Source: Polyangiaceae bacterium | GTDB lineage: Bacteria; Myxococcota_A; Polyangia; Polyangiales; Polyangiaceae | DNA length: 64,000 nucleotides | Assembly: GCA_033763455.1 (NCBI GenBank) | Contig: JANRKO010000023.1 | Location: forward strand, 32,001-96,000 | Direction: 5' to 3' | Part shown: in pieces, positions 31,917 to 43,447 of the stretch | How the letters are laid out: every line of letters starts with the position of its first letter | How positions within the stretch are numbered: position 1 is the stretch's first letter | The notes under the pieces: generated by a model | What the model was told of the DNA's origin: nothing | The model's input: the letters and a program-made list of their open reading frames with translations, nothing else | Database searches by the model: none | Program-made: the position numbers and the translations under genes

Positions 31917-33086
31917 ATGAGCACGCTCCTAAGTTGGATTCGACGCTGGCAGTCCACTCTCATCGTTGCGGGCTTCTTGGCCGGCGTCCTCTATTTCACG
32001 CGCGATAGGGATACCCGAAAGTGTGCCGACTTGCCGGTTTGTGCCGAGCTCGGCAAGTGTGGCGGGGCGCCTCCCGAATGCAAAGCGACCTCCGATGATG
32101 CATGCAAGAAGGCGCGCGTGTGCCAGAGCGCGGGCCAGTGCCACGCCGTAGGGGATCGCTGCGTGATTACGGACGACTGGTGCCAAAAGCAAAGGAGCTG
32201 CAAAGCTTCGGGCCAGTGCACTGCGCAAATCGGCCCGCCTGATCAGTGTATTGCCGGACCAAATGATTGCCAGGGCTCTGACATCTGCAAGAGCGACGGA
32301 CTTTGCATGAGTCGAAACGGCCAATGCGCAGCTACTGCGGACGGATGCAGGGCCTCCATGCCCTGCCAGAGAGACGGCCTATGCAGTGAGCAAGAGGGCC
32401 GCTGCCTCGCGCTCACGCGAAACGACTGCGAAACGTCTGAAAACTGCTTCAAGCAGGCCAAATGCAGCGCGAATGGCGGAATCTGTAAGCCTGACGCCGA
32501 TGATTGCAAGACTTCGGCGCTTTGCCAAAAGTACGGCCTCTGCAAAACCAAAGACGGAAGCTGTGTGGCCGACACCGACGAGGCGTGTTTGGCTTCCGAA
32601 GAATGCAAGTTGAACGGCCGCTGTCGTGTGAAACAGAACACGTGCGGAACCGTTAAGGATGAAGACTGCGCGGCCTCTACGAAGTGTAAGGAGGAAGGGC
32701 GCTGCGCGGTGCGCTACGGCGTGTGCGCTTCCACAGAGAACAGCCACTGCCGCAACTCCGACGTTTGCAAGACGCAAGGTCGCTGCGCCACGGACAACGG
32801 GCGCTGCATAGCAACTCAAAACGCAGATTGCCGGAAATCGGACCTTTGTCTCGAAGAAGGCCGTTGTTTCGCCGATAAAAGCAGTTGCGCAGCCCAGCGC
32901 GACGAAGATTGCAAGCGCAGCAAGGTGTGCAAAGAAAAGGGCACCTGCACGGCCAAGTACAGTCGCTGCGTTGTCGATTTCAACTACGGCAAGGCCGACG
33001 CTGGAGCCGCAACCCTCGGCACCCAGCAGAACGCAAAAGCTACTGGCGGCACGAAGCCCGCGACCTCAACAAAGCCCAAACCTTAA
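31917..33086 (+). CDS. Membrane-anchored protein with 12 tandem four-Cys repeats
   Basis: N-terminal TM LIVAGFLAGVLYF, then 12 units of C-x5-C-x5-C-x6-C-x6/7 (48 Cys; one unit has a 3-aa insertion). Confidence 0.85.
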   Translation: MSTLLSWIRRWQSTLIVAGFLAGVLYFTRDRDTRKCADLPVCAELGKCGGAPPECKATSDDACKKARVCQSAGQCHAVGDRCVITDDWCQKQRSCKASGQCTAQIGPPDQCIAGPNDCQGSDICKSDGLCMSRNGQCAATADGCRASMPCQRDGLCSEQEGRCLALTRNDCETSENCFKQAKCSANGGICKPDADDCKTSALCQKYGLCKTKDGSCVADTDEACLASEECKLNGRCRVKQNTCGTVKDEDCAASTKCKEEGRCAVRYGVCASTENSHCRNSDVCKTQGRCATDNGRCIATQNADCRKSDLCLEEGRCFADKSSCAAQRDEDCKRSKVCKEKGTCTAKYSRCVVDFNYGKADAGAATLGTQQNAKATGGTKPATSTKPKP

Positions 33087-40175: not shown

Positions 40176-40576
40176 CTTGTCCTTTGCAAACGCTCCGTGG
40201 GATTCAATCTATAGGAGCTATCACGCTCGCGCGGCGCCACACATGCCCTCGGCTGAAGCGCGACGCAAGCACCTGTTGGCCAACCGCCCGAACCGAGCCC
40301 TTTGGCTCACCCCCACCCGCCCGCCGACATCGACCCACGGCGCGTTCGCCTGGTATTCAGGTTTCTTCAGGCCAATCGGCGGCGGCTACACGTAGGCTGG
40401 TACTGCTTCAGATTCAATCGGCCGCGTGGCCCGCAACTACAGCCGTTCCGACGCCGGCAGCCCTGGCTGGCATCCGCGGCTTGCTGTCCTGGCGCTGCGT
40501 CTGGTGAGGCCGGCAGAAGCTGTAAAACATGAACATCAACGCCGTCGCGTTTCTGTGGCTCACTGAACGAATGCTC

Positions 40577-40606
40577 TTGCACATAGACGTCCAGACGTCT
40601 TATGGT
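40577..40606 (+). promoter_or_regulatory. Putative sigma70 promoter of the RM operon with palindromic spacer
   Basis: TTGCAC-N18-TATGGT; spacer contains AGACGTC-CA-GACGTCT; ATG follows 8 nt after the -10 with no RBS. Confidence 0.6.
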
Positions 40607-40614
40607 TTCACGTG

Positions 40615-40848
40615 ATGGCAAAAACCACGGCGAAACGCCAGCCTGGAGAAGTACGGGATGCAATCTTGGCGTACCTGAAAGCCAGTGGGCGCGCCTGCTC
40701 AGTTGCCGAGATCCTGGCAGCCGTAAGTGAGAAGCTCGGCGCGCCAGTTCCCGCATCATCGGTGCGCTCATATCTTGGCTCCAACGTCAACGGTGATGAA
40801 AACAAGTTCCGCCGTGTCGGTCACGGGAAGTATGAGCTGGCAAAATGA
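40615..40848 (+). CDS. Small winged-helix protein (HARE-HTH-like), probable RM controller
   Basis: RDAILAYLKASGRACSVAEIL..SSVRSYL..FRRVGHGKYEL three-helix plus wing pattern; ATGA overlap with the MTase. Confidence 0.7.
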   Translation: MAKTTAKRQPGEVRDAILAYLKASGRACSVAEILAAVSEKLGAPVPASSVRSYLGSNVNGDENKFRRVGHGKYELAK

Positions 40849-41798
40849 AAGCAACTGCGCGCTCTACTGGACCGAAGAGAAGGCCGATGGAACCAGTGAG
40901 CCACCAGCTGCACCGCGCCGACTGCCTTGCGTGGATGGCGCAGCAGCCGGAATCTTCAATCGAAGCAATTGTGACGGACCCGCCCTATGGGCATCGCGAG
41001 TACACCGATTCCGAGCAGCAGAAACTTCGAGCGGGGCGGGGCGGAATCTGGCGAATTCCACCCGCGTTCGATGGGTTTAAGCGCAGCCCATTGCCGCGCT
41101 TCACGGTTTTGTCGGACAGGGACAAAGAAGAAATGGAGGCGTTCTTCGCAAGCTTCGCCAAACAAGTGGCGCGTATCCTTGTGCCCGGCGCGCATGTGTT
41201 CATCGCGGCAAACCCATTGCTGTCGCACTTGGTTTACTATCCGCTGATTGCCGCAGGGCTTGAGAAGCGCGGAGAAATTATCCGGCTCGTCCAGACGCTG
41301 CGTGGCGGTGACCGCCCCAAGAACGCACATGAAGAGTTCGCCGAAGTCACGGTTATGCCACGCTCTCGGTGGGAACCGTGGGGGCTGTTCCGCAAACCGT
41401 GTGAGGGTCGCGTGCAGGATAATCTTCGCAAATACGGCACGGGGGCACTGCGGCGCCTGTCGGCGGATCGTCCTTTTTCGGACGTGATCGAGTCGTCCCC
41501 AACTCGACCAGAAGAGCGTAAGATTTGTCCGCACCCATCGCTTAAGCCACAGGCATTCATGAGACAGATTGTCCGGGCAAGTCTTCCGCTCGGCCACGGG
41601 ACTGTCTTGGACCCTTTCATGGGCGGTGGGGCGACCGTGGCGGCGGCGCTTGCGGTCGGATACTTAAGCGTGGGTATCGAGAAAGACCCTGTCTTTTTCG
41701 CAGTTGCGAAGCGCGGTATCCCGGCTCTTGCCCAACTTGAGGGTACTGCGGCAGACTCAGCGGGTGCCACCCGCCGTGCCCGTTCGGGCACAACCTGA
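40845..41798 (+). CDS. Site-specific DNA methyltransferase, beta class (m6A or m4C)
   Basis: Motif IV VTDPPY precedes HPSLKP and motif I VLDPFMGGGAT. Confidence 0.93.
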   Translation: MKATARSTGPKRRPMEPVSHQLHRADCLAWMAQQPESSIEAIVTDPPYGHREYTDSEQQKLRAGRGGIWRIPPAFDGFKRSPLPRFTVLSDRDKEEMEAFFASFAKQVARILVPGAHVFIAANPLLSHLVYYPLIAAGLEKRGEIIRLVQTLRGGDRPKNAHEEFAEVTVMPRSRWEPWGLFRKPCEGRVQDNLRKYGTGALRRLSADRPFSDVIESSPTRPEERKICPHPSLKPQAFMRQIVRASLPLGHGTVLDPFMGGGATVAAALAVGYLSVGIEKDPVFFAVAKRGIPALAQLEGTAADSAGATRRARSGTT

Positions 41799-42378
41799 CC
41801 AGAGCAAGTTTAATCGCGATCGGGAGTACCCATACCAGCTTCGCTGGAGGGACTTCGAGATGGCCATGCAGGATGTGTACGACTTCTTCTATGACGTAAA
41901 TGTGCTTAGCTTGAAGAAGGGCTTGCAGCGGTTCGACGATATGCTTCGTCCTGCGATCCTGTCAGGGATGCTTTCGGACATGCTCACGGCCAGCGTTGCG
42001 AAGCATTCGAGAACACTCGTCCAGAACGAGTATTTCAACGGCCACCCGGATCTCGTCGTCCAGGGTGTCTACCCCAAGAACGCTGCCCAGGCGGGATCCG
42101 AGGGTGTTGAAATAAAGACGACGCGTAAGGGGGGCGGTGCTGTTGATACGCATGGGGCCCGCGAGCAATGGATGTGCGTGTTCGTCTATGAGGTCGACGG
42201 CGAGACCGAGCCAGCGAACGCGCGTGCTCCGCTGATATTTACGGAGGTCTATCTGGGACAGGTCAAGGTCACGGACTTCCGTGCAAACGCGCGAGGGGCG
42301 CTTGGGACCAGAACCGCGACTCTCGACGCCAAGGGCATCGCTCGTCTTCGTCAAAACTGGGTGTACTTGCTTCGTTAG
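41776..42378 (+). CDS. Putative type II restriction endonuclease, PD-(D/E)xK fold
   Basis: GHPDL...GVEIK motif; overlaps the MTase 3' end; GTG at 41776 gives 200 aa. Confidence 0.7.
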   Translation: MPVRAQPDQSKFNRDREYPYQLRWRDFEMAMQDVYDFFYDVNVLSLKKGLQRFDDMLRPAILSGMLSDMLTASVAKHSRTLVQNEYFNGHPDLVVQGVYPKNAAQAGSEGVEIKTTRKGGGAVDTHGAREQWMCVFVYEVDGETEPANARAPLIFTEVYLGQVKVTDFRANARGALGTRTATLDAKGIARLRQNWVYLLR

Positions 42379-42586
42379 TCCCGGCTGCCAAGCGGGATGG
42401 GTGGCACTCTAGACGGATGCATGAGCGATCTCGCAAGCCCAAGCGCCCCCCGGCCGACCTCAAGAGGCCGCCAGGCGCGTCTTGGACGCCTTTATCGGAG
42501 CCAGCACACGGCACCGCCCAGCCGAAAGCGAAGGGTCCTCGGCACGGCGCGAGCTTCAAGTAGCACCCAGTCCGAGGCTTGGCGCT

Positions 42587-43294
42587 TCATTTGGACCGGC
42601 GGCTCTTGGCTAGTTGGCCGATTGAATCTGAAGCGGTACGGGGGGCTTGGGGCGGCGTTACGCGGAGATATCCCTCCGCGAGGAACGCAAAAATCTGCTG
42701 AGTTAGGACATCCGCCGTCTCCTCGGTGAGCCCAAGCGCCACGGCCTGGTAGAGGAGCTCCTTCAAGGCGCCCAAGGTCAGGTACGCGAGCACCCGGGGC
42801 TCGCCATCCCGCACGATCCCGAGGGCTTGACCGTCCTTCAGGCTCTCAGTCAAAAGCTGTACCACGCTATCGTAGAAGGTTGAGAGCTTGCGGTGAAAAT
42901 CACTGTCCACGCCTGTGGCATCAGTGAACAAGATCTTGGTCATCGAACGCTCTTTCAAGCAGATCCCAACCACCGTGCGGATATTTTCGCGTACCTGCAG
43001 GCTCACACTGCGCTCCGCCTCATCCGTCGTGATGCGCTGGATACCCATCGTGATGTGCGCTGCAAAGCGATCGATCAAATCCGCCAGCACTGCGCGCTTG
43101 TCCTCAAAGTAGAGGTAGTAGGTTCCGCGGGCTACGCCGGCTTCCGCGACAATGTCGTCAATCGTCGTTTGGTGGTAGCCGCGCTTCACGAATACATCGC
43201 GAGCAGCTTTGAGGATCTGCTGTCGGCGTTCCTCCTTGGGGATAGCGGCCCCCGATCCAATCTTCTTGCGGGTTTTTGCGCGACGCTGAGCCAT
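42587..43294 (-). CDS. TetR/AcrR family transcriptional regulator
   Basis: RRQQILKAARDVFVKRGYHQTTIDDIVAEAGVARGTYYLYFEDK; ATG at 43294; last ~16 codons are supplied by the inserted cassette. Confidence 0.92.
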   Translation of the reverse strand: MAQRRAKTRKKIGSGAAIPKEERRQQILKAARDVFVKRGYHQTTIDDIVAEAGVARGTYYLYFEDKRAVLADLIDRFAAHITMGIQRITTDEAERSVSLQVRENIRTVVGICLKERSMTKILFTDATGVDSDFHRKLSTFYDSVVQLLTESLKDGQALGIVRDGEPRVLAYLTLGALKELLYQAVALGLTEETADVLTQQIFAFLAEGYLRVTPPQAPRTASDSIGQLAKSRRSK

Positions 43295-43358: not shown

Positions 43359-43447
43359 GTGACGTCAGTGTCACCCAATTGCAGCCTCAAGAGCTTGCAG
43401 CGAAGGCCCGATTCAGGCAGCCTGTCGACCGCTGACGTCAGTGTCAG
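43359..43447. promoter_or_regulatory. Two identical palindromic operators TGACGTCAGTGTCA
   Basis: GTGAC-GTCAGT-GTCAC at 43359-43374 and CTGAC-GTCAGT-GTCAG at 43432-43447, in the divergent tetR/activator intergenic region. Confidence 0.75.

Follow-up and report, generated by a model that had tools for sequence, protein, structure and literature searches.

A transposase-less cassette carrying a putative type II restriction-modification system, inserted in the 3' tail of a tetR gene in a Polyangiaceae bacterium

In the 64,000-nt stretch of DNA analysed here (the window; positions 32,001 to 96,000 of contig JANRKO010000023.1, assembly GCA_033763455.1, Polyangiaceae bacterium) a 2.24-kb cassette bounded by terminal inverted repeats has been inserted in the 3' tail of a tetR gene. 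The cassette encloses three overlapping genes, encoding a winged helix-turn-helix (wHTH) protein, a DNA methyltransferase and a nuclease, and is a transposase-less restriction-modification (R-M) cassette of a kind already published, a variant with unassigned ends and a free-standing putative controller. The explanation we favour, and consider probable, is that the cassette is non-autonomous and that a transposase of the DDE type, acting in trans, inserted the R-M unit once.

The left terminal inverted repeat (40400..40423, forward strand, 24 nt) starts with GTAC and the right one (42616..42639, reverse strand) lies inside the tetR reading frame. The arms match in 23/24 positions, the single mismatch being position 5, and under an independent-base model the chance expectation for such an inverted pair is 0.0004 per 64-kb window. 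When scanning the genome (6.56 Mb) for inverted pairs with a score of at least 18 and a span of 150–12,000 bp, 14 pairs appeared, one of which is the cassette pair. The non-coding flanks between the repeats and the genes measure 188 and 237 bp and showed no transposase remnant, no unusual RNA structure and no Rfam match, and the GC content of the cassette is the same as that of the host. Six family searches of the genome for transposases and recombinases left the contig of the cassette without a match. These results agree with the original prediction, made from the sequence of the window alone, which had described a 24-bp repeat around exactly three coupled genes, flanks of about 190 and 240 bp, no transposase or recombinase inside or nearby and an R-M operon as the only cargo; the unit consists of the three genes with their own promoter and operator and holds no mobility gene.

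The insertion was revealed by comparison with three congeners that are 72–79% identical to the window, the empty site being compared at genus level only. In two of them (G001 and G003) sucA and tetR are adjacent, while in the third (G002) they are split over two contigs. The similarity between window and congeners ends at ~40287 and restarts exactly at 42640, the first base past the right repeat, and between the last conserved codons of tetR and the start of sucA lie 229 and 231 bp in G001 and G003, compared to 224–228 bp in the window minus the cassette. Since the congeners keep the two genes adjacent at the spacing expected without the cassette, the latter is an insertion, and in these relatives without the R-M genes the repeats are absent as well. 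The alignment of the sucA-tetR region suggested earlier thus confirmed the adjacency, while a junction with a single GTAC is not visible at this degree of divergence. Among the contigs from public sequencing runs, of which three out of four listed contained 6–18% of the words, short near-identical pieces of the flanks were found together with one 151-nt piece of the methylase gene showing zero differences; no joint across the unit was seen, none of the 32 pieces listed out of 642 spans a junction, and this material is uninformative on empty or inverted forms.

In the original prediction it went unnoticed that the right end of the cassette sits within tetR. The tetR frame (42587..43294, reverse strand, PF00440) passes through the right repeat and ends at a stop at 42587, and according to the translation it now takes its last 16 codons and its stop from the cassette, so the site of insertion is the 3' tail of tetR and not intergenic. 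TetR of all three congeners ends in a short arginine-rich tail, and a probable displaced native tail, consisting of three arginine codons followed by a stop, is found at 40367..40387 on the reverse strand, where it matches the tails of the congeners and has its stop in register. The match comprises 13–14/21 nt (p 0.01–0.06, or p 0.07–0.23 for a 24-nt version, all post hoc), and its protein-level pattern gives p 0.007, also post hoc and for a tail that evolves fast. It is overlapped at 40365–40380 by a degenerate copy of the repeat core, the likeness of which (p 0.01) is again a post hoc observation.

At the ends of the cassette only TA, GTAC and trivial 2-bp matches are readable as a target-site duplication, and shifting both boundaries symmetrically by -8 to +8 revealed no duplication of 5–9 bp. 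Because the tip of the repeat is a 4-bp palindrome, GTAC and TA are not independent evidence, and the GTAC or TA duplication proposed in the original prediction is better seen as a by-product of this tip. The tetR frame leans in the same direction, as collapsing the cassette to one GTAC would throw the probable native tail out of frame (p about 0.01–0.2) while removal of 2238, 2241 or 2250 bp would leave it in frame; being post hoc and concerning a fast-evolving tail, this is not a refutation of a single-GTAC junction.

The methyltransferase (40845..41798, forward strand, 317 aa) belongs to the beta class of N6/N4 DNA methyltransferases, with DPPY placed before FxGxG, and matches PF01555 (E 7.7e-16) and the PADLOC model MTase_II PDLC03215 (E 9e-113). 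Its gene overlaps the wHTH gene by 4 bp (ATGA) and its closest homologue (89%) also has 317 aa. The best PADLOC model for it is 331 positions long, which we take to be the length of M.AatII as well. The nuclease (41764..42378, forward strand, ~204 aa) is a PD-(D/E)xK restriction endonuclease with a NaeI/EcoRV-like fold; its start is uncertain, the likely one being the GTG at 41764, which makes the gene overlap the end of the methyltransferase gene by 35 bp. The structure model (predicted local distance difference test 89.8) has NaeI as its best match (Z 9.3, root-mean-square deviation 3.7, 144 aligned), followed by SwaI, SfiI, BglI and EcoRV, and the residues D96, E116 and K118 are invariant in 120/120 sequences. 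In sequence searches the nuclease gave a weak match to REase_II in PADLOC and none in PDB, Pfam or phages, and with its NaeI-like fold and ~204 aa it is presumably much shorter than R.AatII. The nuclease family comprises at least 8000 clusters, and in 79/80 metagenome loci the nuclease adjoins a methylase. In the bacterial family of the host the gene is present in 1/382 other genomes, at 30% identity, and in the phylum in 3/400 genomes. The intact motifs of the amino-methyltransferase, together with a separate and co-occurring PD-(D/E)xK nuclease, point to a type II R-M system. Two distant homologues of the nuclease (P0252 and P0267) have a C-protein-like HTH or an AbiEi-like domain as fusion partner.

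The first gene of the cassette (40615..40848, forward strand, with a GTG at 40612 as alternative start) encodes a free-standing protein of 77 aa with a winged-helix fold, a candidate for an operator-binding repressor. Its likeness to HARE-HTH domains comes from a look-alike search and serves as a lead only, and none of the control-protein (XRE/Cro-type C-protein) profiles in PADLOC matches it. In 43 other loci the wHTH is fused to the methyltransferase and the nuclease is convergent, while in the cassette the two are split and all genes co-directional. Stand-alone wHTH homologues (58–77% identity, ending at the same residue) and unfused methylases show that the split is a trait of the lineage. 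A sequencing frameshift was considered, one added A being enough to fuse the genes, but is unlikely given the stand-alone homologues, and the 11 nearest non-self methylase matches, all of unfused size (297–326 aa), speak against such an artefact.

When analysing the region upstream of the wHTH gene a putative σ70-type promoter (40577..40606, forward strand) was identified, with a weak -35 box at 40577–40582 and a -10 box at 40601–40606, probably giving a near-leaderless transcript; in the window itself it scores below the threshold of the scan. Its spacer is filled by a putative operator consisting of two GACGTC palindromes 2 nt apart (40586..40599). Homologous loci show a TTGACA-like box 8–10 nt before the operator (TTG in 39/48), TA-N3-T right behind it and, in 26/48, a start codon 12–13 nt past it. 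Tandem GACGTC in the promoter spacer is present in 43/44 loci bearing a wHTH and 0/15 loci without one (59 of 87 loci being evaluable), counts that are not independent, the fused loci being one clade with few independent events, and this weakens them as support for an operator. The cassette lies outside that clade yet has both the wHTH and the tandem GACGTC. We propose autorepression by the wHTH protein at the tandem GACGTC. As regards GACGTC being the target of the enzyme too, the pair tracks the wHTH rather than the enzymes, and GACGTC is not depleted (0.99 in the genome; 0.79 in the pooled loci, rank 26 of 64). The only other tandem pair in the genome is found on another contig (G000:C38:72849). 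A fused system with the same operator is carried by small mobilisable plasmids of the ColRNAI type (L104 and L105), the plasmid hosts being Klebsiella, Citrobacter, Raoultella and Pseudomonas. In the literature searched, which left out most subscription papers, ISfinder and REBASE, no description was found of the tandem GACGTC operator, the ends of the cassette or the enzyme family.

Among 92 related loci of this R-M family, sufficient flanking sequence was available for 73, and in 10 an inverted-repeat match surrounds the genes. Five of the ten are autonomous elements carrying the methylase-nuclease pair. Two are insertion sequences (IS) of the IS1 family, L032:1830–5959, which has a 27-bp repeat, an 8-bp duplication and additional passenger open reading frames besides the pair, and L238:3973–6839 with the same pair; three are ~2.77-kb elements of the IS1595 family with perfect ends of 22–25 bp (L065:1074–3842; L239 and L240:5906–8678), and an IS1595-family carrier of the pair also occurs on viral contigs. 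A sixth locus, L051:71–2114, is a 2.0-kb transposase-less cassette with the same R-M family (a fused wHTH-methylase and a nuclease) between different ends, these being 54-bp inverted repeats of 78% built of two internal direct repeats. The remaining matches are a plasmid transposon boundary or probably due to chance. The methylase of the window groups with those of L025, L032, L065, L086, L089 and L091 (support 98/88). This R-M family is thus in the habit of being captured between IS ends, from which mobilisation in trans draws its main support. Direct repeats of 36–68 bp were seen in 4/57 evaluable loci (68 bp in L088, 44 bp in L061, 36 bp in L090 and L093), as in an insertion that makes a long duplication of its target.

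Regarding the origin of the ends, the genome contains 9 matches to IS66 transposases. From 78 IS66 loci of the order 32 repeat-plus-duplication calls were obtained, 27 of them distinct and 21 with GT at both ends, the other 6 being dropped as likely spurious, and a profile was made from 26 distinct termini, all pre-selected for GT. These ends are repeats of 22–30 bp starting with GT(A/G), and 4/26 begin with GTAC. Among random 12-mers the right end of the cassette ranks in the top 0.07% and the left end in the top 0.9%; compared to true IS66 ends the right one is within range and the left one at the bottom. The repeat also shows TCAG at positions 9–12, like an IS66 element of the genome itself on contig C33, whereas the IS66 elements have a transposase and an 8-bp duplication and the profile fit of the cassette is weak. 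As a best guess the ends may derive from IS66, a lead rather than an assignment and carrying roughly a third of the weight of the favoured explanation, with a TA/GTAC-targeting family ranked next. The query with IS66 against viral contigs gave nothing. An intact IS66-family element with an 8-bp duplication (L154, G000:C33:259329–261713) is inserted in a CRISPR repeat array.

Other sources of the ends were also considered. The link to IS630/mariner or IS5 elements drawn in the original prediction found no support, as no IS630 transposase (PF13358) was found in the assembly, which is 93.7% complete, and IS630 ends in this bacterial family start with CTAG or CTAA. The IS1 and IS1595 elements carrying the enzyme pair have ends that differ from those of the cassette, and their transposases had no tblastn match in the genome. 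The multi-copy repeats of the genome and the IS termini at contig ends bear no resemblance to the repeats. On contigs C73 and C65 other inverted pairs tipped with GTAC turned out to be copies of an abundant operator-like word and not ends of elements. This word is a 20-bp palindrome with well over 100 near-copies, intergenic and on many contigs (for example C73:14386, C65:15169 and C23:66568, the latter just beyond the lpd end of the window region), and is probably the site of a global regulator.

Several observations weigh against a transposase in trans, or against IS66 as its family. The 19-nt core of the repeat has, at up to 3 mismatches, only two copies in the genome, the arms of the cassette, and there is no second copy of the ends. 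In 150 family genomes 12 single matches with 1–2 mismatches were found, compared to 1 control match, and no pairs; 400 phylum genomes gave 2 single matches, all GTDB species 4 matches where 4.3 were expected, and viral contigs and plasmids no copy. The four exact GTDB matches to the core are no more than chance would give and do not have the GTAC tip, and the sharing of ends with another element, which had been expected, was not encountered in any of these collections. Against the IS66 profile, once GTA is taken as given, the right end drops to the top 5.6% and the left end to the top 31%, and at one position where 26/26 IS66 termini have C or G the left end carries a T. The cassette also has no 8-bp duplication, while 21/21 of the retained IS66 elements have one, in their case by construction.

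The course of events we propose begins with the capture of a type II R-M operon, promoter included, between the ends of an insertion sequence of the DDE type, whose transposase gene was lost or never formed part of the unit. A transposase acting in trans would then have inserted the 2.24-kb unit a single time, within the last codons of tetR. As the tetR frame stays open through the repeat and meets a stop 17 codons in, tetR would have survived with a new tail, and sucA would have retained its upstream region. Type II R-M systems are known to persist through defence and addiction, and the unit may have been maintained in the same way. From a near-leaderless transcript the winged-helix protein would be made first, bind the tandem GACGTC in the promoter spacer and turn the operon down, and it might sense methylation of these sites if GACGTC is also the target of the enzyme. 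The non-autonomous element of the original prediction stands as far as an inserted, repeat-bounded unit is concerned, while its mobilisation in trans is what we infer from the relatives.

A bolder version, in our view rather unlikely, is that the GTAC-tipped ends define an undescribed class of cassettes, moved by another recombinase with a duplication of 0 or 1 bp into the tails of genes, keeping the frame open and supplying the stop, and that the wHTH is a new R-M controller reading methylation at two cognate promoter sites. Also unlikely is site-specific integration of a small circle by a recombinase encoded elsewhere, the two repeats forming the arms of the circle's symmetric attachment site. 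Joining the ends of the cassette would make a near-perfect 44-bp palindrome around TA, terminal repeats with a core of at most 2–4 bp and no 8-bp duplication would be explained, insertion at the 3' end of a gene is typical of such elements, and 12 tyrosine recombinase matches exist in the genome; no serine recombinase was however found in the 93.7% complete assembly, the host flanks do not resemble the repeat arms in the inverted arrangement that an attB site should show, and this route needs the same single-GTAC empty site that the tetR frame leans against. Slightly less probable again is an illegitimate capture of the R-M genes through template switching or break repair, in which one arm, seeded by host sequence, was copied from the other. 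Ends that are unique in all collections searched would fit such an origin, as would the degenerate copy of the core, which lies on the probable native tetR tail 20–35 bp beyond the left repeat, and the long direct repeats around other members of the family (L088, L061, L090/L093), but statistically this copy is marginal (p 0.01 post hoc; p 0.09 in a 96-versus-84-nt comparison) and both arms are found exactly at the boundaries of the insertion, like the ends of a transposon.

That the R-M proteins themselves mobilised the unit, by a cut of the nuclease followed by repair, is a possibility raised in the discussion of PMC2853133 and would agree with the failure to find a cognate transposase. We regard it as very improbable, since GACGTC is absent at both junctions, the only two sites of the unit being those in the promoter, and the relatives of the unit use ordinary transposases. 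Just as improbable is an invertible segment that acts as a switch for the operon or for the tail of tetR, which had been offered as the alternative reading and for which no support was found. The arms are inverted, and the single mismatch is synonymous in the tetR frame, which stays open either way round; against this, the operon has its own promoter, so inversion would alter little, the contig has no recombinase match, and the whole segment is missing from the congeners, so an insertion is required regardless.

A group of 24 R-M cases between inverted repeats and without mobility genes was described by Furuta, Abe and Kobayashi in 2010, transposition in trans being left open (PMC2853133). The units resemble the cassette in being type II R-M systems with imperfect inverted repeats and no mobility gene, in having repeats that are not found elsewhere in the genome and in the empty site of relatives. 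Two resolved cases there have 8-bp duplications and the cassette has none, it enters a coding tail unlike those units, and none of the 24 listed repeats is, by eye, like that of the cassette (PMC2853133). From its sequence the cassette would count as an R-M unit of this type except for a demonstrated duplication. The IS1 and IS1595 elements described above share with the cassette the methyltransferase-nuclease cargo and, at 2.8–4.1 kb, have repeats of 22–27 bp, but unlike the cassette they have a transposase and ends starting with GG and lack the wHTH and operator. IS elements with passenger genes are reportedly termed 'transporter IS'.

The putative regulation also has counterparts. M.SsoII, M.Ecl18kI and M.EcoRII repress their own promoter via an N-terminal HTH, and CfrBI and LlaDII have cognate sites in the promoter (PMC3874152). 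The likeness lies in an operator overlapping the methylase promoter and a DNA-binding domain made with the methylase, while the cassette differs by a winged-helix, HARE-HTH-like domain associated with the amino-methyltransferase family, present as a separate protein of 77 aa, and by a spacer that contains two palindromes. For HARE-HTH domains a role as readers of modification has been suggested, though not proven (PMC11037411). M.AatII methylates the A of GACGTC (PMC3287169), and AatII thereby shares the hexamer and an amino-methyltransferase with the cassette. In the genome as a whole CTCGAG is strongly under-represented (0.53 of expected) and is the only palindromic hexamer below 0.75.

The genes neighbouring the cassette are lpd, sucB, sucA, tetR and a BadF/CoA-activase gene. 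In the divergent promoter between tetR and the CoA-activase gene two identical 14-bp words with a TGACGTCA palindrome, each containing GACGTC, are located at 43360–43373 and 43433–43446 and likely form the operator of TetR.

How transposase-less R-M cassettes move has been an open question since 2010, to which the cassette contributes an example with unassignable ends and without an 8-bp duplication. In this R-M family the same defence module is packaged between IS ends of at least three kinds and between long direct repeats, which supports the borrowing of transposases in trans. With a small, soluble putative controller domain that is naturally separate, it becomes directly testable whether methylation is sensed at the tandem GACGTC.

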